This document shows positions 1,132 through 18,091 of a stretch of DNA of 43,466 nucleotides, piece by piece; positions within the stretch are counted from its first letter, which is position 1, and each line of letters opens with the position of its first letter. The notes beneath the pieces are model-generated. The model did no database searches and had not been told where the DNA came from. It saw only the letters and a list, made by a program, of their open reading frames with translations. Source of the DNA: Candidatus Daviesbacteria bacterium (GTDB lineage: Bacteria > Patescibacteriota > Microgenomatia > Daviesbacterales > UBA10151); NCBI GenBank assembly GCA_041690695.1, contig JBEPVZ010000005.1, positions 1-43,466 on the forward strand, in the 5' to 3' direction. Position numbers and translations under genes: made by a program.

Positions 1132-1826
1132 TAAGTCGCATACTTATAGTTGCATTACTGCTCTCCTTTACCTTAATCGCCCCACTTCTCCCCGAATCTG
1201 AAACAAATGTTCTGGCAGCAGAAAAAGTCATAGATCCTTCCCTATCTGCTCCTCAGCCAATCCACACCGAATCTCGTTTTGAAACCAAGTTAATTAGCAC
1301 CGTTCAAATACTCGATAGAACAACCACCTATAAGGACGATCCTGAAGCTGAACTAGATACTGAACAGGTTTTAGATGAAGGCGCTGATGGTAAAAAAACG
1401 ATCATCACTAAGATTGCTTATTACGAAGGCAAAGAATATTCTCGAGATATTGTTTCAACTGAAGTCGTCGATCCTAAACCAAAAATAGTCTCAAGAGGAA
1501 CGAAGATTGTTTGGCGAACCTTAGACACGCCGGACGGGCAAATTAGCTATTGGCGAAAACTCCACGTTTGGGCAACTCAATATGACTCCCATTGTCCCGG
1601 TTGTGATGATTGGACTGCCATTGGCATGCACCAGGGTAAAGGAGTTATCGCGGTTGACCCATCCGTCATTAAATTAAGATCTCAAGTTTATATTCCAGGT
1701 TATGGAAAGGCTGTTGCTGGAGATACTGGGGGGGCTATTAAAGGTAATATTATCGATGTTGGTTTCCCAGATGCTCACACTTCAGGCTGGATGTCACACT
1801 TTGTGGATATTTATCTGATTAATTAA
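1128..1826 (+). CDS. G5 + 3D domain cell-wall protein (YabE/Rpf-like)
   Basis: Signal peptide, a G5-like segment (EGADGKK...PKPKIVSRGTK) and a 3D domain (IAVDPSVIKL...YIPGYG.AVAGDTGGAIKGNIIDV). Start placed at the ATGA overlap with the pcrA stop. Confidence 0.85.
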   Translation: MISRILIVALLLSFTLIAPLLPESETNVLAAEKVIDPSLSAPQPIHTESRFETKLISTVQILDRTTTYKDDPEAELDTEQVLDEGADGKKTIITKIAYYEGKEYSRDIVSTEVVDPKPKIVSRGTKIVWRTLDTPDGQISYWRKLHVWATQYDSHCPGCDDWTAIGMHQGKGVIAVDPSVIKLRSQVYIPGYGKAVAGDTGGAIKGNIIDVGFPDAHTSGWMSHFVDIYLIN

Positions 1827-2019
1827 TCTGCTTAGTCTTTTTATCAAAAAAGATTAAATAGATTACTGGCAAAATTCCGGCTGAATTAATAATTAATAAG
1901 AAGACAAACCAATAAGGCTGATTATTTCGACCAGATTTCCAAAGTGCAAAGCCTTTTAAAATCAGATCAAGAAGGATTAAGGGCAAAAGCCAAGCCCAAT
2001 GGTCTCGAATAAAAATCAT
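1819..2019 (-). CDS. Small membrane protein, DUF5652-like
   Basis: LKGFALWKSGRNNQPYWF...INSAGILPVIY pattern. TATAAT lies 7 nt upstream of the ATG. Confidence 0.75.
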   Translation of the reverse strand: MIFIRDHWAWLLPLILLDLILKGFALWKSGRNNQPYWFVFLLIINSAGILPVIYLIFFDKKTKQIN

Positions 2020-2047
2020 TGAATTAATTATAACCTAATTTAAAGAA

Positions 2048-2686
2048 TTAAGAACTTGCGCCGTAATGAATCGTTGAGATTAACTGCTCAACCTGAGTTG
2101 AATAATCAATTGGACTAGTCGCTCGTGAACCGTTTTGAGAAGTTCGAGTTGAGATATTCAAAAGCGGCTGAAGTTGGGTACACCAAACATAATCTTTTTG
2201 ACCATCGTTATAAGTATGAGTGTGTCTTAAAACTGGAATAGTTCCAACATTAACTGCAGGGCCAGAACATCCAGCACTAGAGTTTACCAAAATAGTGATT
2301 GGTTTAACCGCTTGGCCACATCGAACATTTAATTGATCAGTTGAATTTGTTGGATCAAATTCAATATTTTTAGAGTTACTACAGGTTAAAAGACCCCAAT
2401 TCTTGGGATACTGGAATTGAAAACCCTCACCATTATAAATTTTAAAATTTGGATCAATTGATTGAGTAACTAAAGGCGACGGTGCAGGAGTGACTGTATT
2501 AGTCGTAATTGGAGCCTCTGCATTTGAACTTGCAGCAGGTTTTGAGCTTGAAGTCACAATTGGATGACTAGAATTTGTAGAGTTAGATTTAAAAGCTTGG
2601 GTAAGGTAAAAGATCGTTCCAAGCACGATTGCTAAAACGAGTAATGCAATAACCCCAACTATTAATAAGCTTCTACCTTGACTCAT
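2048..2686 (-). CDS. Membrane-anchored hypothetical protein (PsbP-like C-terminal region possible)
   Basis: N-terminal TM helix, S/T/P-rich linker, YNGEGFQFQYPKNW motif and four Cys. Start moved to ATG 2686, which follows a TATAAT. Confidence 0.65.
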   Translation of the reverse strand: MSQGRSLLIVGVIALLVLAIVLGTIFYLTQAFKSNSTNSSHPIVTSSSKPAASSNAEAPITTNTVTPAPSPLVTQSIDPNFKIYNGEGFQFQYPKNWGLLTCSNSKNIEFDPTNSTDQLNVRCGQAVKPITILVNSSAGCSGPAVNVGTIPVLRHTHTYNDGQKDYVWCTQLQPLLNISTRTSQNGSRATSPIDYSTQVEQLISTIHYGASS

Positions 2687-2755
2687 AGTGTTTGCTATTA
2701 TACCGCTTTTTCTAAATAAAAGCAAATAAAAGGACCAATCGCTTATAATTGTCTC

Positions 2756-3763
2756 ATGGATCTAAAAGTACTCGATGACTCTTATAAAACTAGCTATAAC
2801 AAGCTTGTCACTCACCCAATCCAATCTTGGGAATGGGGCGAATTCCGGAAATCAATCGGAACAAAGCTTATTCGCTATGGTTTATTTGAAGGTAATCAAT
2901 TAAAAGTTGCTTTTCATTTAACCTTTCACCCTATTCCCCTTTTAAATCAAAGTATCGGTTATCTTCCGAAAGGACCGATGATTAACCAATATCTTTATTT
3001 GGCTCTTAAACAAATTGGCCAAGACAATCAATGTTTGTTTATTAAAGTTGAGCCAAACATTAAAATCACCGATCATCATGATACGATTGATTCACATTTT
3101 AAGCCTTCACCAAAACCGTACTTTACCAAATATAATTTTGTTGTTAACTTAGATGACTCTGAAGAAGAGCTATTAAAAAGCTTTGATTCAAAGACCCGTT
3201 ATAACATCAAGGTTGCTCAAAAACATAATGTCAAAATTGAAATTTCAGATAGTGACTCTGCTTTTCAAACTTATTTAGATCTCTACTTTGCGACAACTGC
3301 TCGCCAAGGTTACTTTGGCCATGATCGAAATTACCACAGCCAAGTTTGGCAAACCCTTAAACAAGCCGGGATGGCTAAGTTATTAATTGCCAGTTTTGAA
3401 GATGAACCCCTAACCGCCTGGATGCTAATTAACTTCCACGACAGCCTCTATTATCCTTACGGCGGATCATCACTAGCTCATCGACAAGTCATGGCTAATA
3501 ATTTAGTGGCTTGGGAAGCTATTAAATTTGGTAAAAGTTTGAAATTAAAATATTTTGATATGTGGGGAGCGGCACATAGTCCAAATCCTGATAAGAACGA
3601 TCCTCATTATGGCTTTCATCGATTTAAACAAGGCTACAGCGGAGAGTTAGTTGAGTATTTAGGAACGTATGATCTGATATTTAACGGGCCTCTTTATCAA
3701 ATTATCAGTCGGTTAGATAAGTTAACTAAGTTAAAATCTATTCTTCTCAAATTATTCCGCTAA
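2756..3763 (+). CDS. FemABX-family peptidoglycan bridge aminoacyltransferase (lipid II:amino acid transferase)
   Basis: HPIQSWEWGEFR, YLPKGP, FIKVEP, KTRYNIKVAQK, YYPYGGS, FDMWG and GFHRFKQGY motifs. Confidence 0.9.
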   Translation: MDLKVLDDSYKTSYNKLVTHPIQSWEWGEFRKSIGTKLIRYGLFEGNQLKVAFHLTFHPIPLLNQSIGYLPKGPMINQYLYLALKQIGQDNQCLFIKVEPNIKITDHHDTIDSHFKPSPKPYFTKYNFVVNLDDSEEELLKSFDSKTRYNIKVAQKHNVKIEISDSDSAFQTYLDLYFATTARQGYFGHDRNYHSQVWQTLKQAGMAKLLIASFEDEPLTAWMLINFHDSLYYPYGGSSLAHRQVMANNLVAWEAIKFGKSLKLKYFDMWGAAHSPNPDKNDPHYGFHRFKQGYSGELVEYLGTYDLIFNGPLYQIISRLDKLTKLKSILLKLFR

Positions 3764-10454: not shown

Positions 10455-11678
10455 TTACCGAAATAATTCATCAACATCTGGCTCAATCAGATTCGCATTA
10501 ACATTTGTTTCTTTAGTATAAGTCACCTTTGATTCTTCTGTTTCAATCGTTTCAATCGTCGTTATTTCTAAACTTTTCATCTCCGGAAGTGACGTCCCCA
10601 TTAAGCTTTTTAGATCGCCATGCATCCCAAAAGTATTATCTAAAACCATCCGAATACTTTTTTCATCCCTGGCCCATTTGCTGGCAAAATATCTCTTTTC
10701 CTTTTCAACCTCTTTTTGCATATTGGTAAAAGCATCAATAATTGCTTCCATCCGATTTAAAAAACTTGGGCCAGTTAAATATTGATAAAGCATCTCAACT
10801 TTTTGATCTTTACCTTCAGCTGATTTTCGGACCATTTGAAGATGAATTAATTTAGCTCGCAAAGCATCTGCTAAGGGAATCACAAATTGACGACTAGTCA
10901 CCCAAATCTGATTTCGAAATCCAGCGATTTTTAAATCGTTTGGTAAAACTTCTGAAATTAAAACGGCATCATCTGCACTAATCGCCCTTTTATCACCCTT
11001 TAATTTATCGACCCAAAGCTCGCTCCAAGTTTTAGTGTTTTTCAACTCCCACAAAATCTTACCAGCATAATTTCCATACGAATCATAAACTTCTTGAACA
11101 ATATCGCCCCCCTTTACCCCTTTTGCGACTGGAGTAATTTTATCGTGGCCATAACGATGAGCTAGAGATTCTTCAAATTCTAGTTCAAAAGCTTCACCTT
11201 GAGTTTGCTGAGAACCTTGTTGAAGTTTTCGCTTCATCTCTTCAGCTTCTTTGAGAGCATCTTGAAGTTGTTTATCCTTTTCTAAAAGCTTGGTGTATTG
11301 GCCTTCCTCAGCCTTTTTTTGAGCTTCAATCTGAATCTTTTCTCGTTCTTCATTTAATTTTTTCTCACTTTCCAACGCCCGATTTTCGTCTTTTTCTTTG
11401 AGCTCTCGCATCGACCGAGTCAAATCTAACAATTGTTCTTGAAGTTTGCGATTACGATCCTTCGCTTCCTCCGCCTCATTATCTTTGTCCTTGAGACGAA
11501 GCTCCATCTCCTCTTCAGCTTTTTTCAAAGCCTTAGTTTCCGCTAATTTGGTAGCTTGTTCAATATCAAGTTTTGTCTTTTCAGCAAATTCGGACTCGTA
11601 TGCGTGAGACATCGCCTCGGAGATATCGACAGTTTTGTTACAGTTGGGACAGATGATGGTCATTGAAGAGTTAGCCAT
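10455..11678 (-). CDS. DUF2130 domain protein (Zn ribbon, coiled coil, nuclease-like C-terminus)
   Basis: ICPNC, long E/K-rich coiled coil, GSQQTQGE..ELEFE, GGDIVQEV, ILWELKNTKTWS..W..KLK.D. Start uncertain (11678 or 11663). Confidence 0.85.
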   Translation of the reverse strand: MANSSMTIICPNCNKTVDISEAMSHAYESEFAEKTKLDIEQATKLAETKALKKAEEEMELRLKDKDNEAEEAKDRNRKLQEQLLDLTRSMRELKEKDENRALESEKKLNEEREKIQIEAQKKAEEGQYTKLLEKDKQLQDALKEAEEMKRKLQQGSQQTQGEAFELEFEESLAHRYGHDKITPVAKGVKGGDIVQEVYDSYGNYAGKILWELKNTKTWSELWVDKLKGDKRAISADDAVLISEVLPNDLKIAGFRNQIWVTSRQFVIPLADALRAKLIHLQMVRKSAEGKDQKVEMLYQYLTGPSFLNRMEAIIDAFTNMQKEVEKEKRYFASKWARDEKSIRMVLDNTFGMHGDLKSLMGTSLPEMKSLEITTIETIETEESKVTYTKETNVNANLIEPDVDELFR

Positions 11679-11774
11679 GGGTAGGGAAGTGTTCTCAATT
11701 TTAACTTTAACCGCCAACAAATTCAATTACCGCCTACTAGCTACAAACTACCCATCCCTTATATACTAAATATT

Positions 11775-12122
11775 ATGTCTCTGATTAAAAAGACTCTGCC
11801 TATCTTTCTATCAATGGTGGCTATCGGACTCGTCTTCTACTACGTTCCCCCTCCAACTTCATGGCCAGAAGCTTCGACATTTCAGATTTTAGCCTTTTTA
11901 CTACCAACCTTAACCTTAATAACCTTTTTAATAAATGCTTTTTTAGACTTTTTTCCTAGAAGTTTGTCGATTGGACTAGGGGCGATTATGTTACTGGTTT
12001 TAGCGATGATTAATGATTTAAATTTAGCCCTTTTGGTCGTCACGATAATTACTGTCATTGTTCTTTTTACAGCTTTTAAAAAACCTGATCATAAACCCCG
12101 AAAGCCAGTCAATAAATCGTGA
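11775..12122 (+). CDS. Hypothetical four-TM membrane protein
   Basis: Hydrophobic ORF with a basic tail; TATACT lies 7 nt upstream of the ATG. Confidence 0.7.
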   Translation: MSLIKKTLPIFLSMVAIGLVFYYVPPPTSWPEASTFQILAFLLPTLTLITFLINAFLDFFPRSLSIGLGAIMLLVLAMINDLNLALLVVTIITVIVLFTAFKKPDHKPRKPVNKS

Positions 12123-12129
12123 ATTACTC

Positions 12130-12159
12130 TTGCCATATTTGACAACTTGGGTATATAAT
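12130..12159 (+). promoter_or_regulatory. Sigma70 promoter of the leader/SAM hydrolase/metG unit
   Basis: TTGCCA(12130-12135)-18 nt-TATAAT(12154-12159), 8 nt before the leader ATG. Confidence 0.65.
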
Positions 12160-12167
12160 CTCTGTTA

Positions 12168-12236
12168 ATGAACTCAGTAATAGTTTTAACGATGTCTATG
12201 CAAATGCGAAACTCTTCCAAGGGAGGGACTATTTAG
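12168..12236 (+). CDS. Putative Met-rich attenuator leader peptide MNSVIVLTMSMQMRNSSKGGTI (22 aa)
   Basis: ATG 12168 to TAG 12234-12236, with internal ATG codons at 12192, 12198 and 12204. Overlaps the 5' arm of an antiterminator. Not in the ORF track. Confidence 0.75.
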   Translation: MNSVIVLTMSMQMRNSSKGGTI

Positions 12237-12276
12237 TTTACCTTTTTAAAAAGTAAGCTAAAGGTTATCGCCTCCC
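12221..12276 (+). promoter_or_regulatory. Putative antiterminator hairpin
   Basis: GGGAGG(12221-12226) pairs with CCTCCC(12271-12276); TTTAGTTTAC(12232-12241) pairs with GTAAGCTAAA(12253-12262) with one G-U. This structure sequesters the 5' arm of the terminator. Confidence 0.7.
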
Positions 12277-12294
12277 ATCCGGGGGCTTTTTTTT
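12270..12294 (+). terminator. Intrinsic terminator (attenuator) 10 nt upstream of the SAM hydrolase start
   Basis: GCCTCC-CATCC-GGGGGC followed by T8. Confidence 0.85.
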
Positions 12295-12304
12295 AACCAA
12301 AAAT

Positions 12305-13060
12305 ATGAAAACTAAAATTATTACATTTATAACAGATTTTGGAGATGAGTTCGCTTTGTCTCAACTTCAGGCAGTGGCGTTATCAATTAATCCAAAAGTA
12401 AAACTGATTACCATCTCCAATCAAATTACCCCTTATTCAATAAACGAAGGGGCATTTGTAATTAGTCAGGCCAAGCAGTTTTTCCCATCAGGAACAATTT
12501 TCGTCGGAGTCGTCGATCCTGGTGTCGGGACCAATCGAGAAGGTATCATAATTCAAACCAGCCAATATACTTTTATTGGCCCAAATAACGGCTTATTTTA
12601 TGAAGCGGTTAAAGATTGTCAATTTAAAGTTTTTAAAATTATTGAAAAAAAGGTTAATAAAAGTCATTCAACAACTTTCCATGGCCGTGATGTCTTTGCA
12701 AAATTAGCCGCTTTTCTATCAACTAATAAAAAGATCGCTGACTTTGCTGAACAGATTGATCAAGAGAGATTAATTAAATTAACACTTAAGCCAAATCAAA
12801 TTTTACATATCGATGATTATGGCAATCTAAAAGTTAATAACTTTTGTGATAATTTCAAACTTGGTGATCAACTGACTATTAAAACTCATGACCAGTCAAT
12901 TAAAGTGCCTTTTGTTCAAACATTTGGTCAAGTCAAACCAGGGGAATTATTAGCATATAAAGGCAGCCATAATACTTTGGAGATTGCCAAGAATTTAGAT
13001 TCTATTAATCAAGTTTTAAATTTAAAAGTAGGCGACATTATTAGTATTGAGAGGTTATAA
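12305..13060 (+). CDS. SAM hydroxide adenosyltransferase / SAM-dependent halogenase family (DUF62)
   Basis: ITFITDFG, FPSGTIFVGVVDPGVGTNR, FIGPNNG, STTFHGRDVFA, HIDDYGNL and LEIAKN motifs. Confidence 0.92.
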   Translation: MKTKIITFITDFGDEFALSQLQAVALSINPKVKLITISNQITPYSINEGAFVISQAKQFFPSGTIFVGVVDPGVGTNREGIIIQTSQYTFIGPNNGLFYEAVKDCQFKVFKIIEKKVNKSHSTTFHGRDVFAKLAAFLSTNKKIADFAEQIDQERLIKLTLKPNQILHIDDYGNLKVNNFCDNFKLGDQLTIKTHDQSIKVPFVQTFGQVKPGELLAYKGSHNTLEIAKNLDSINQVLNLKVGDIISIERL

Positions 13061-13067
13061 TACGATC

Positions 13068-14480
13068 ATGAACAAGTTTTATATTACGATTGCTATCCCC
13101 TATGTTAACGGCAAGCCTCATATCGGTCATGCCCTCGAATATTTCCAGGCAGACACCGTCAGAAGGTTTTATGATTTGCGGGGTTATGAGACTCTCTTAT
13201 TATCCGGGGCTGATGAAAACGCTTTAAAAAATGTCCAAGCCGCGGAAAAAGAAGGTTTACCAGTTAATGAATTCTTGGATAAATATTCAGCTGTTTTTAA
13301 AAATGCTTTTGAAAAGCTGGGTGTTAGATTAGATGTTTTTCAAAGAGGTTCTGATCAAGAAAAACATTGGCCTGGTGTTCAAAAATTATGGAAACTTTGT
13401 GATGACAATGGCGATATTTATAAAAAAAGTTATAAAGGTTTATATTGCGTTGGTTGTGAGAGTTTTAAAACTGAAAAAGAATTAGTTGATGGACTTTGTC
13501 CCGACCATTTAAAAAAGCCTGATTTAGTCGACGAAGAAAATTACTTTTTTAAACTAACTAAATATCAAGATCAATTAGTCGAACTTATTGAAACTAATAA
13601 ACTAACGATTATCCCCGCTAATAAAAGAGCCGAAGCACTATCTTTTATTAAATCGGGACTTGAAGACTTTTCAATTTCTAGATCAAAAGCTCGTTCCCGT
13701 GGGGTTGGAGTTCCTGTTCCAGGAGATAGCGAGCAGTTTATCTATGTCTGGTTTGATGCCCTAGATATTTATTTGACTGGAGTTGGTTTTGGAACAGATC
13801 AGGAAAGATATGAAAAATGGTGGCCAGCGGATTTACAAATTATTGGCAAAGATATTAATAGATTTCACACTATTTATTTACCCGCCATTTTACTGTCAGC
13901 CAAATTACCTCTCGCTAAAGAGATTTTAATTCACAGTTTTATCAATGCTGGTGGCCAGAAACTAAGTAAATCGTTGGGTAACGTCATTGATCCTTTTGAG
14001 GTCGCTGATAAATATGGCTTGGAGCCGCTCCGCTATTACCTGCTCTCTCAAATTCCACTTGACGAAGATGGCGATTTTACATTTGAGCGTTTTGAAGAGA
14101 TCTATAATGCTGACTTAGCCAATGGTCTAGGCAACTTAGTTGCCAGAGTTGCCAAGATGGCTGAAAAGCATCAGATTATTATGGATCTTCGACCTGATAA
14201 ATTTGATTCGGAATTTGAAGATTTATTATCTCAATATAAATTTAGTGAAGCGCTTAAATTTATTACGGGTAAGATAGGGGAGGCCGATCGAAGAATTAAC
14301 GATACCAAACCGTGGGAGTTAGACCAAGAAAAAGCCACTCCGATTTTGGCAGATTTAATTAAGCAAATTCAACAAATCGGTTATAACCTACAACCGTTTC
14401 TACCCGAAACAGCGGCCAAAGTTTTAAAACAACTTTCCGGTCAAATTAAACCAGCTGAATCTTTATTTCCAAGGATTTAA
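13068..14480 (+). CDS. metG: Methionyl-tRNA synthetase
   Basis: FYITIAIPYVNGKPHIGH (HIGH), YCVGCE Zn knuckle, IYVWFDAL, IGKDINRFH, KLSKSLGN (KMSKS) and NADLANGLGNL. ATG 13068 lies 6 nt after TATAAT. Confidence 0.97.
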   Translation: MNKFYITIAIPYVNGKPHIGHALEYFQADTVRRFYDLRGYETLLLSGADENALKNVQAAEKEGLPVNEFLDKYSAVFKNAFEKLGVRLDVFQRGSDQEKHWPGVQKLWKLCDDNGDIYKKSYKGLYCVGCESFKTEKELVDGLCPDHLKKPDLVDEENYFFKLTKYQDQLVELIETNKLTIIPANKRAEALSFIKSGLEDFSISRSKARSRGVGVPVPGDSEQFIYVWFDALDIYLTGVGFGTDQERYEKWWPADLQIIGKDINRFHTIYLPAILLSAKLPLAKEILIHSFINAGGQKLSKSLGNVIDPFEVADKYGLEPLRYYLLSQIPLDEDGDFTFERFEEIYNADLANGLGNLVARVAKMAEKHQIIMDLRPDKFDSEFEDLLSQYKFSEALKFITGKIGEADRRINDTKPWELDQEKATPILADLIKQIQQIGYNLQPFLPETAAKVLKQLSGQIKPAESLFPRI

Positions 14481-15403: not shown

Positions 15404-16240
15404 ATGTTAATTGATTCACATGCCCATTTATATTGGGATTCTTTTCAAGAAGATTATGATGCAGTTATCGAGCGGGCGATAGCGGCTGGAGTTACAACAA
15501 TTATAAATATTGGGGTTGATATAGAAACAAGTAGAAAAGTTGCCGGACTCACCAACGATAAAATTAAATTTTATTCGGCTATCGGCATTCACCCACACGA
15601 AGCAATTAAATATTCAACAGATGAATCCATACACAAGGACATAGCAGAGTTGACTGAGATTTTTCACGAAAACTCTTTACACGTTCTGGCAATTGGTGAA
15701 TGTGGATTGGATTTTAAATTTGAAAATAATCCAGACCTCCCCCCAACTTCCCTATCTGAATCTGAAATGAAAGAGCTCCAGATAAAACTCTTTCAAGCTC
15801 AAATCGATCTTGCCCGAAAACTCAACTTGCCCCTATCCGTCCATTGCCGTGAGGCTGAATTAGGCCAAACTGAATGCTGGGACAAGGTTTTAGAGATGCT
15901 GACAGGCACAAAAGCCATTCTCCACTGCTATAGTGGCCAGCCTCAACACACTCAGAAAGTTATTGAATCAGATAATTTTTTAGTCTCTTTTGCGGCCAAC
16001 GTCACTTATCCTAAAAATGATTGGTTAAGGGAAGCTATTAAAAGTTTGCCTTTAGAAAAAATAATTCTCGAAACTGATTGTCCATTCCTCGCTCCCCAAT
16101 CCAAACGTGGCCAAAGGAATGAGCCTGCCGCCGTCTTAGAAGTCGCCCAAACTGTGGCTGAGGTCAAAGGTATTTCGGTGGAAGAAGTGGCTAAACAAAC
16201 TACATCTAACGTTTTTAAATTCTTAAATCTAAAAGACTAG
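15404..16240 (+). CDS. tatD: TatD-family deoxyribonuclease
   Basis: LIDSHAHL, GIHPH, AIGECGLD, VHCR, LHCYSG, LETDCPFLAP and RGQRNEP. Confidence 0.95.
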   Translation: MLIDSHAHLYWDSFQEDYDAVIERAIAAGVTTIINIGVDIETSRKVAGLTNDKIKFYSAIGIHPHEAIKYSTDESIHKDIAELTEIFHENSLHVLAIGECGLDFKFENNPDLPPTSLSESEMKELQIKLFQAQIDLARKLNLPLSVHCREAELGQTECWDKVLEMLTGTKAILHCYSGQPQHTQKVIESDNFLVSFAANVTYPKNDWLREAIKSLPLEKIILETDCPFLAPQSKRGQRNEPAAVLEVAQTVAEVKGISVEEVAKQTTSNVFKFLNLKD

Positions 16241-16321: not shown

Positions 16322-18091
16322 ATGCGTCTTATCTTAGCCTTCGTCATCGGCCTTCTGTCCGCTTTCTACTTTGGCGAACTACTTACCCGAGCCTTTAAAC
16401 GACCAATTCATAGCTTTATTGGTATTGGGATTATCTTAATTGGTATTTTCTTCATTACCCTAGGCAGCTCTTTCTTGGTTTCACCCATCAATATTCTGCT
16501 CGGAACTTTCTTGATAGGTTCAGGTTTAGGCTTACTCCTCCACCACCTTCTTTCTCAAAAATTTGTGTTCTCTGAACGACTTGAACATAATTTTGTTAGA
16601 AAACACGAAAATGGAGTCGAGAGATTTTTTGAAATTTTACCAGGAGCCCTGACATGGCTGGCCATCACTTCCCCACTCTGGCTATCCTTTCAATTTCCCT
16701 TTGCAGTCGCTTATCTAATTATTTTAGCCGATACTTATTGGTTATTTAACTCTTTTAAATATGCCATTACCGTTTTTGTCGGCTACAAAAGAATGGAAAA
16801 TGCCAAAAAGACTAATTGGCTCGACCGCCTTAAAAAGGACTACCCTGAAACTTGGGGCAATTATTACCATTTAGTTTTAGTACCAACTTATAAAGAAGCT
16901 TTATATATTTTAGAGCCAACTTTTAACGCTATCGTCAACTCCAACTTTCCTAAAGAAAAAATTCTGATATTAGTTGGCTATGAGGAGAGAGACAGTCCAG
17001 AAAAGATCGAGCAAACTAATAAATATCTTGAAACAATTAAGGATAAAGTTGGTGGAGTCTTTATGACCGTTCATCCATACGGCCTAGAAGGCGAGGTCCC
17101 TGGACAAGGTAGTAATAAAAACTGGATGATTAAAAAAACGTTACCTGACCTTAAAAAGATGGGTATTGAACCTGACCAGATTTTTGTAACAACTCTTGAC
17201 GCTGATTTTATTGTTCATAAAGAATTTTTAGGCGGAGCTCTTCATAAATATTTATCCACTCCGGCCGATCTGCGGGATGTTTGTTCTTATACCGGAGTCT
17301 TCATGTTCCATAATAATTATTGGGAAGTGCCAACACCAATGAGACTAATTGCAACCGGTACTGCTTTTTGGCAATTATCAGAAATGGTCTCATCAGATAA
17401 ATATATTAACTATTCTTCGATGTCGATTAATTTAAAATCGCTGCTCGATATTGGTCTTTGGATTCCAGATAAAGTTAACGATGATTCCGGATTTTATTGG
17501 AAGGCTTATTTTCATTTTGATGGAAAATATAAAGTTTTGCCTCACTTTTTACCGATTAGTGCTGATGCCGTTTTAGATGTTAGTTTATTTAAAACTTTCC
17601 AAAATCAATATTTGCAGCTTAAACGCTGGGCTTATGGAGTAGAACATATTCCGTTTATTGTCCGCCAATACTGGAAAGGCGACAATATCGATTTCTGGGA
17701 TAAGACTGATAAATTAACTTTTATCCTTTGGTCTTATTTTAAATGGGGAACCTTGGCATTATTTATTACTTTCGGAGGATTATTAATTCCATTAATTAAT
17801 CCCTCATACTCACAATCCGTCGTCTCGACTAACCTATCGACTATCTCTTCATGGATATTAACATTAGCTTTCGTAGGACTATTTTCAACAATTGTTATTA
17901 ATGAAAAGACTTCTCCAAAAAGGCCTAAAGATTGGGGAATTATTGCCAGGTCTTGGTCTTACCTCCAATGGGCTTTTGTACCAATTATTTTAGTGACAAT
18001 TGCAACCATTCCGGCAATTGATGCCCAAACAACTTTAATGCTCGGGCGACATATCGAGTTTAGAGTTACTAATAAAGAACGTAGCAAATGA
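16322..18091 (+). CDS. Membrane-embedded processive family 2 glycosyltransferase
   Basis: LVPTYKE, TTLDAD (DxD) and QLKRWAYG (QxxRW), with N- and C-terminal TM helices. Confidence 0.85.
   Translation: MRLILAFVIGLLSAFYFGELLTRAFKRPIHSFIGIGIILIGIFFITLGSSFLVSPINILLGTFLIGSGLGLLLHHLLSQKFVFSERLEHNFVRKHENGVERFFEILPGALTWLAITSPLWLSFQFPFAVAYLIILADTYWLFNSFKYAITVFVGYKRMENAKKTNWLDRLKKDYPETWGNYYHLVLVPTYKEALYILEPTFNAIVNSNFPKEKILILVGYEERDSPEKIEQTNKYLETIKDKVGGVFMTVHPYGLEGEVPGQGSNKNWMIKKTLPDLKKMGIEPDQIFVTTLDADFIVHKEFLGGALHKYLSTPADLRDVCSYTGVFMFHNNYWEVPTPMRLIATGTAFWQLSEMVSSDKYINYSSMSINLKSLLDIGLWIPDKVNDDSGFYWKAYFHFDGKYKVLPHFLPISADAVLDVSLFKTFQNQYLQLKRWAYGVEHIPFIVRQYWKGDNIDFWDKTDKLTFILWSYFKWGTLALFITFGGLLIPLINPSYSQSVVSTNLSTISSWILTLAFVGLFSTIVINEKTSPKRPKDWGIIARSWSYLQWAFVPIILVTIATIPAIDAQTTLMLGRHIEFRVTNKERSK

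Follow-up and report, generated by a model that had tools for sequence, protein, structure and literature searches.

The contig JBEPVZ010000005.1 of Candidatus Daviesbacteria bacterium, referred to here in its full length of 43,466 nt as the window, has at positions 12130-12304 a compact leader region which is most probably a ribosome-mediated leader-peptide transcription attenuator, one that senses how much charged Met-tRNA is available and so governs the two genes that follow, namely a DUF62-type S-adenosylmethionine (SAM) hydrolase gene and metG, the gene for methionine-tRNA ligase (MetRS). This reading is carried by the anatomy of the element, its conservation in related genomes, the co-variation of its stems and its switching in silico. 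The window is contig C5 of a genome (designated G000) of 1.04 Mb in 40 contigs, which is 92.7% complete. An earlier note on this DNA had interpreted the region in the same way; that interpretation is supported, and the comparative evidence given here is independent of it.

Anatomy of the leader

The features of the leader, all of which lie on the forward strand, are as follows.

12130-12159 (+): sigma-70-like promoter, with -35 box TTGCCA (12130-35), an 18-nt spacer and -10 box TATAAT (12154-59), 11/12 matches
12168-12236 (+): leader ORF (upstream open reading frame, uORF), 22 codons and TAG, peptide MNSVIVLTMSMQMRNSSKGGTI
12192-12206 (+): regulatory Met codons 9, 11 and 13 (M-S-M-Q-M), with AUG at 12192-94, 12198-200 and 12204-06
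12212-12217 (+): segment 1, CTCTTC, pairing weakly with segment 2
12221-12227 (+): segment 2, GGGAGGG, the antiterminator 5' arm within the leader ORF, own 2:3 duplex -12.5 kcal/mol
12232-12262 (+): inner 10-bp stem-loop lengthening the antiterminator helix, as found by folding
12270-12276 (+): segment 3, GCCTCC(C), the terminator 5' arm, with CCTCCC at 12271-76
12270-12294 (+): intrinsic terminator GCCTCC/GGGGGC, with segment 4 GGGGGC at 12281-86 and T8 at 12287-94

The earlier note had described this promoter, the 22-codon uORF with its Met cluster at codons 9-13, the segments and the T8 terminator, and all are present at the positions listed. It had also considered the pairing of segments 1 and 2 to be weak, as is indeed the case, the 1:2 hairpin (12210-12229) having 6 bp inclusive of G-U pairs and a folding energy of -6.3 kcal/mol, with 33 of 200 shuffled sequences being equally stable. 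The long hairpin with a 10-bp inner stem that it had drawn between segments 2 and 3 is equally apparent; the 2:3 antiterminator (12219-12278, inner stem included) reaches -21.6 kcal/mol with a z-score of -3.74, and none of 200 shuffles was as stable. The terminator stem has 6 bp, five of them G-C pairs (-10.4 kcal/mol), and its T8 tract ends 10 nt before the start codon of the DUF62 gene (12305). The minimum free energy of the leader as a whole is unremarkable (z -0.95), which is to be expected of a switch.

The AUG of the uORF lies 8 nt 3' of the -10 box and is without a Shine-Dalgarno (SD) sequence, so that the uORF would be translated from a leaderless or near-leaderless mRNA. This leaderless start is a feature absent from the earlier note.

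Conservation in related genomes

The relatives of G000 carry names that belong to the Candidate Phyla Radiation (CPR), such as WWE3, Gottesmanbacteria and Amesbacteria. In a sample of 401 genomes of the same class, a Met-cluster uORF with a terminator was sought up to 400 nt upstream of DUF62. The DUF62 gene is present in 25 of these genomes, and 23 of the 25 genes have such a leader, 19 with at least three Met in five codons and four with two; one of the 23 positives (G091) is an unpublished genome, the exclusion of which leaves 22 of 24. The two DUF62 genes having no leader are divergent (31-34% identity) and do not adjoin metG. Of the 23 positives, which cover at least nine GTDB families in the class sample, 20 have a metG gene downstream in the same orientation. 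Conserved Met-rich uORFs upstream of DUF62 and metG, which the earlier note had suggested seeking in relatives, are found there. G030 and G040, the two relatives whose DUF62-metG pairs are the most similar, have the same order of elements: 7-9 nt separate the -10 box from the Met-rich uORF, and a terminator follows.

In most of the metG loci taken from the nearest relatives (n = 30), metG has no leader and is abutted by a small gene for a membrane protein; one of the 30 (G037) has a Met leader ending …GMMMVT directly before metG. A covariance model (R1) built from 22 leaders of the short type found three more in a sample of 151 genomes of the class (G125, G061, G153), each before a small ORF and metG, the small ORF of G061 encoding an MTS-domain methyltransferase. 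Weaker R1 matches yielded a further metG-associated Met leader (G139), and a genome from a different class of the phylum (G522) has one before a DUF62-like ORF. Met leaders were found in at least 34 places altogether. Most weak R1 matches consist of the terminator only; one full-length match (G123, L230) was rejected as it has no uORF, and among the 15 weaker full-length matches that were fetched, L251, L253, L255, L256 and L258-L265 were unconvincing as leaders.

Apart from the class sample, 80 DUF62 loci from a species-representative collection were inspected. Of the 15 most similar, 14 are positive and of CPR type, the lone negative being archaeal, and the other 65 include a single, weak positive. 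Among the best 80 metagenome DUF62 loci listed, which are mostly distant (at most 40% identity) and serve mainly as a negative control, there is one positive, and this is Amesbacteria-like and hence CPR-like. Taken together, the 65 and the 80, or 145 other loci, mostly non-CPR as judged by record title or GC, hold two positives, one weak and one CPR-like. It is worth mentioning that one public metagenome-assembled genome has two DUF62 copies on two contigs (L042 and L075), with near-identical Met leaders of the form MK[L/R]IYQLSTSMMMRPCYSGAVDV.

Rarity within the genome

With a simple detector run on both strands of G000, taking uORFs of 6-45 codons with a terminator within 90 nt, 342 terminator-like sites and 196 combinations of uORF and terminator were counted. 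Only one of the 196 has at least three Met in a five-codon window, and it is the element described here.

These data bear on the possibility that the arrangement is due to chance, with a terminator that merely ends the membrane-protein gene upstream (11775-12122) and with random matches in AT-rich DNA taken for promoter and uORF. Promoter-like and terminator-like sites are common here, with eight promoter-like matches against 5.1 expected in 1.7 kb. However, the element is unique genome-wide, and the module travels with DUF62 and metG where the upstream gene differs, a homolog of the membrane protein having been found upstream of it in G000 only. In most relatives of the family, moreover, the membrane-protein gene abuts metG with no terminator between them. 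A chance origin is thus already contradicted by the comparative data and is considered extremely improbable.

A scan of G000 for other cognate-codon leaders gave six candidates, none of which stands beside a recognisable synthetase gene, and no leader was seen at its ileS-like gene (contig C33). At C12:204-286 (-) a short ORF, MVRIRGMIIIR, is followed by a weak terminator-like hairpin and then by an apparent membrane protein; this could be chance or another leader.

Shared geometry of the leaders

Comparison of the 34 leaders shows what is kept and what is free. The Met clusters are in frame in all, with ATG columns that are invariant or nearly so in the MAFFT alignment (A2). The distance from the last Met codon to the stop codon is 2-4 codons in 24 of the 34 and exactly 3 in 19, and the terminator stem begins 21-34 nt past the stop codon in every one. 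A -10-like hexamer is found 4-12 nt before an in-frame start in 32 leaders, 29 of these hexamers matching in at least five of six positions (the background is 6.6% of all ATGs of G000), and none of the 32 has an SD-like motif.

In the common short type, the start of segment 2 falls between -3 and +1, counted from where the stop codon ends. In G000, G162 and L042/L075 segment 2 lies inside a longer ORF, and in the three leaders of genus g31 the weak duplex of their own likewise maps inside the ORF. Many leaders of the short type have GUG or UGUG about 10-14 nt past segment 2, near the antiterminator apex (A2 columns ~47-53), perhaps as a motif of the loop or as a signal for pausing.

Outside the Met run, the leader peptides are conserved neither in sequence nor in length (7-42 aa as detected), and the module is always co-oriented with DUF62 or metG and lies 9-201 nt upstream of it. 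This has consequences for the view that the region is a small independent gene, be it a small RNA (sRNA) of ~125 nt or a micro-protein of 22 aa, served by a promoter and a terminator of its own and simply adjoining DUF62. A complete promoter-ORF-terminator unit is indeed present, and the terminated product would be a short RNA in any case, but neither the free variation of the peptide nor the constant position and orientation of the unit, nor a conserved antiterminator overlapping the terminator, would be expected of such a gene, and this explanation is highly improbable.

Co-variation of the stems

Segment 2 and the 5' arm of the terminator change together, giving at least six pairing solutions across lineages: CGGAGG/CCTCCG, GCGGGG/CCCCGC, GGCGG/CCGCC, GAGGGTCTG/CAGACCCTC, CCTGGTGAG/CTCCACCAGG and, in G000 and G162, GGGAGG/CCTCCC. 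As alignment A2 places segment 2 one or two columns out of register from one stem type to another, duplex energies were calculated for each sequence and compared with swapped arms. The mean energy of the segment-2/terminator-arm duplex is -14.0 kcal/mol for a leader's own arms, -10.5 kcal/mol for all swaps and -9.1 kcal/mol for swaps between the two stem classes. The co-varying stems for which the earlier note had proposed to look are present, own duplexes being stronger on average than swaps.

Predicted switching

Folding was carried out for 30 leaders with the nucleotides under the ribosome, up to 10 nt past the A-site codon, forced to be single-stranded. These folds represent equilibrium, not kinetics, and were made on related sequences. 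The predicted probabilities of the terminator, P(terminator), are as follows.

First Met codon in the A site: median 0.00, G000 0.18
Last Met codon in the A site: median 0.04, G000 0.06
Stop codon in the A site: median 0.99, G000 0.79
No ribosome: median 0.41, G000 0.32

The value of 0.5 is crossed between a stall at the first Met codon and arrival at the stop codon in 26 of the 30 leaders; with the stall placed at the last Met codon, 22 of the 30 do so. In the model, the logic put forward by the earlier note, by which a stalled ribosome frees segment 2 and one at the stop codon blocks it, is thereby reproduced. As a control, P(terminator) in the unconstrained fold of the free RNA was below 0.5 in 27 of the 30 natural leaders, in 8.6% of folds with the free upstream RNA dinucleotide-shuffled, and at 64 of 190 other terminator-like sites of G000. 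As far as modelling goes, the design of the leaders is compatible with attenuation.

Known RNA families

A ligand- or tRNA-binding RNA, such as an unrecognised SAM or methionine riboswitch or a T-box-like element with a fortuitous uORF, would be another candidate here, as SAM riboswitches and T-boxes are common on methionine-related genes and sub-threshold T-box-like leaders occur elsewhere in G000. However, an E-value scan of 11900-12500 with Rfam gave eight matches at E ≤ 10, all of them sub-threshold and at chance level (AaHKsRNA82, Phe_leader and others). The T-box family (RF00230) had no match in this interval even at E ≤ 10, and no SAM or SAH riboswitch family is among the eight. The best leader-type match, Phe_leader (RF01859), has 24.1 bits (E-value 0.11) against a gathering score of 55, its alignment covering only the hairpin and terminator with a deletion of 45 positions. 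Seven related loci searched in gathering mode gave no Rfam match. With only sub-threshold Rfam matches to support them, the riboswitch, T-box and known-sRNA readings were rejected. Furthermore, the conserved part of the leaders consists of the AUG run, a spacer of ~25 nt and the terminator, with no conserved structure of the size of a ligand pocket; the stem sequences vary freely, and it is the reading frame and the position of the stop codon that are kept. A binding RNA is accordingly very unlikely. The earlier note had named non-conserved Met codons and a match to a known riboswitch as grounds for abandoning its interpretation; the Met codons are conserved in relatives, and no riboswitch or T-box match was found in Rfam.

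The two T-box-like matches in G000 are likewise below the T-box gathering score of 93. The one at C36:3449-3614 (-), corresponding to L249 550-715 (-), has 33.4 bits with an E-value of 4.2e-6 genome-wide (1.5e-5 in another search), and it lies upstream of thrS with a T-box-like motif, GUGGAACCACG, and a terminator. The other, at C9:34805-34978 (+), has 24.5 bits. Because of the T-box-like match before thrS, T-boxes and a leader peptide may both be employed in G000, each with other synthetases.

Leaders with other codon runs

Among the weaker R1 matches there are also leaders of the same architecture with runs of other codons, the synthetases downstream being identified with NCBIfam. A run of Ile codons stands just before the stop codon of the uORF preceding ileS in two genomes, as …LNIII in G120 (L232 1501-1577; downstream ORF 1603-3077) and as …KKIIIK in G047 (L254). 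A Thr run, …FTTTTVSL, is found before thrS in G160 (L242), and a Lys-rich run, …KKSKKNSS, before class-I lysS in G050 (L252). The codon run matches the downstream synthetase in all four cases, which argues that ribosomes read the runs as codons, and the sequences suggest that attenuators of synthetase genes form a general family within this class.

These leaders help to decide on a further explanation, by which the element would be a conserved translation-coupled attenuator that senses general translation capacity (how available ribosomes or initiation are, or how fast elongation is overall) and not Met-tRNA specifically, the AUG run being incidental or providing extra start codons. The leaderless uORF, whose translation would depend strongly on initiation conditions, speaks for it, as does the read-through predicted for G000 when no ribosome is present. 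On the other hand, conservation of the Met clusters, which are in frame, contrasts with the free variation of the remaining peptide, their spacing to the stop codon and to segment 2 is fixed, and Ile, Thr or Lys replaces Met exactly where the downstream synthetase changes. Sensing of general capacity is thus considered unlikely, though less so than the other alternatives discussed.

Proposed mechanism

From these features we infer that the uORF is translated, that ribosomes stall within it and that the operon responds to methionine. Transcription would begin a few nucleotides before the leader AUG, and a ribosome would load on the leaderless mRNA. With Met-tRNA plentiful, the ribosome would pass codons 9, 11 and 13 and reach the stop codon, where it would mask segment 2; the 12270-86 hairpin with T8 could then form, and transcription would terminate 10 nt before DUF62. 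With Met-tRNA scarce, the ribosome would stall on the AUG cluster and mask segment 1, leaving segment 2 free to form the -21.6 kcal/mol antiterminator with segment 3 and so allowing read-through into DUF62-metG. The operon, once on, would provide more methionine through SAM hydrolysis by DUF62 and more charging capacity through MetRS. Since the 1:2 pairing is weak in G000, the prediction is that read-through would likewise occur on a leader left untranslated, for instance through a shortage of initiator Met-tRNA. Judging from footprint folding only, such read-through on failed initiation would resolve the paradox of a start codon serving as a starvation sensor.

A number of points weigh against an attenuator that reads Met-tRNA. 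The 1:2 hairpin of G000 is no better than that of shuffled sequences. The leaders of the most similar DUF62 genes (genus g31: G111, G030, G091) have only two Met codons, their predicted switching is weak, with P(terminator) at the last-Met stall of 0.20, 0.79 and 0.54, respectively, and their own 2:3 duplexes rank poorly under an arm-only definition; in the whole set, eight of 30 leaders fail the last-Met criterion. The leader of G000 is undetected by R1; it is of a longer sub-type, in which the ORF contains segment 2, so that its support comes from architecture and not from sequence homology. Among the sequencing runs listed for the locus there is no RNA run, only one DNA run that may be the source of the assembly. 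The related genomes are non-independent, and the counts consequently overstate the statistical weight. Met limitation would also lower the charging of initiator tRNA and hence the translation of the leader, which complicates the classical model. Finally, working intrinsic terminators and leaderless translation are assumed for these uncultured bacteria.

The operon and its surroundings

The regulated genes and their neighbors in the window are as follows.

10455-11726 (-): DUF2130 gene, divergent, upstream neighbor
11775-12122 (+): membrane-protein gene without Pfam family; the leader-DUF62 cassette sits between this gene and metG
12305-13060 (+): first regulated gene, DUF62 / SAM hydroxide adenosyltransferase, Pfam SAM_HAT_N/C
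13047-14480 (+): second regulated gene, metG (methionine-tRNA ligase), likely start ATG at 13068, 7 nt past the DUF62 stop codon
14481-15191 (+): Cu-oxidase_4/YfiH-like gene, after metG
15404-16240 (+): TatD-family hydrolase gene, after metG
16322-18091 (+): ORF of 589 aa without Pfam match

The downstream genes are related to methionine, in agreement with the earlier note, as is evident from the Pfam SAM_HAT_N/C domains and metG. The best NCBIfam match of the DUF62 protein is (R)-S-adenosyl-L-methionine hydrolase, with 186 bits, which is below the cut-off of 470. DUF62 enzymes hydrolyse SAM to adenosine and methionine. No metK (TIGR01034) was found in G000, a genome sufficiently incomplete for its absence to be unproven. 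In view of this result SAM may be imported, and DUF62 would then be a route to methionine.

The MetRS of G000 shares 71% identity with the enzyme of a same-family genome and about 47-54% with those of family f7. The opposite applies to its DUF62, for which the identity is 52% with f7 genomes and 31-36% with DUF62 genes of the same family. In same-family genomes the membrane-protein gene stands directly before metG. Given these differing identity patterns and this gene order, the leader-DUF62 cassette looks to have been inserted upstream of a resident metG, or else lost from relatives, and the identities suggest that it was acquired from, or is shared with, another family. As seen by eye, the upstream neighbor of metG in most relatives is a membrane protein of ~115 aa without Pfam family.

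Relation to known systems

Control of the met genes is generally ascribed to SAM riboswitches, T-boxes or repressors, and methionine is not known as a signal in leader-peptide attenuation. The earlier note likewise knew of no described Met-codon attenuator, and neither such an attenuator nor a metG leader peptide was found in the literature searched, which covered few subscription papers, so that absence from print is unproven. No leader-peptide attenuator in CPR bacteria was found in that literature either. Met regulatory codons in the thrA leader of Pasteurellales were reportedly predicted in 2004 by Vitreschak and colleagues in FEMS Microbiol Lett; if true, this would be a precedent for Met codons in a mixed leader and not for a dedicated Met/metG attenuator.

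Leader-peptide attenuators on synthetase genes include pheST with pheM in gamma-proteobacteria and predicted examples on trpS and leuS in Streptomyces (PMC1262725), as well as a His leader before hisS paralogs in bacilli (PMC2965389). Methionine operons in Actinobacteria are described as showing no conserved RNA structures (PMC1262725). The accessible portions of PMC1262725, PMC4833913, PMC2965389 and bioRxiv 10.1101/834739 describe no Met-codon attenuator or metG leader peptide. The element shares with the synthetase attenuators a short leader ORF rich in cognate codons, alternative 2:3 and 3:4 hairpins, a terminator before the synthetase gene and autoregulation through charged tRNA. It differs from them in sensing Met, in its CPR/Patescibacteria host, in the leaderless ORF, in having a SAM hydrolase gene first in the operon and, in the common sub-type, in a segment 2 which abuts the stop codon.

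The 1:2 / 2:3 / 3:4 architecture and the ribosome-position logic are those of the trp, his, phe, thr, leu and ilv operon attenuators. However, there is no sequence or covariance-model membership in these families, the 1:2 pairing is weak in G000, and the regulated genes serve salvage and charging instead of biosynthesis. T-box leaders and SAM riboswitches, by which metG and the met genes of Firmicutes are usually controlled, resemble the element in regulated function and in a terminator/antiterminator output; unlike them, it has no specifier loop, T-box motif, ligand-binding fold or Rfam match, and its sensor is a translated ORF.

The leaderless polycysteine small ORF (sORF) attenuators of mycobacteria (Canestrari et al., bioRxiv 10.1101/834739) offer another parallel, having a leaderless sORF at the 5' end of the transcript, a run of codons for one amino acid as sensor and operon-level control. 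Cysteine is sensed there and methionine here. It is a further difference that the element described here would act on transcription, as follows from its intrinsic terminator.

Significance

The kind of mechanism, leader-peptide attenuation, is known; as far as the literature was searched, novelty lies in the Met specificity, in a design that is leaderless, in the genes regulated and in the CPR host. A conserved Met-codon attenuator would mean that ribosomes stalling on AUG can serve for sensing although translation also starts at this codon. It would also give the DUF62 SAM hydrolase a physiological role, namely methionine supply co-regulated with MetRS. The element is portable, at ~130 nt.

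On balance, it is slightly favored that the element in the window is one member of an undescribed, phylum-wide system of Patescibacteria (CPR), in which leaderless cognate-codon leaders with an antiterminator arm abutting the stop codon control aminoacyl-tRNA synthetase genes, the Met version being the first methionine-sensing attenuator. If so, such leaders would fill the role that T-boxes play in Firmicutes, and the wider set of synthetase attenuators (Ile, Thr, Lys) could be mined from sequence alone. In the Met version, both initiation and elongation of the sensor peptide would depend on the product of the regulated enzyme; only complete translation would silence the operon, and failure at either the start or elongation would turn on SAM-to-Met salvage and MetRS. 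CPR/Patescibacteria are a huge uncultured radiation in which almost no gene regulation is known, and within the literature searched this would be the first cis-regulatory RNA logic described for them.

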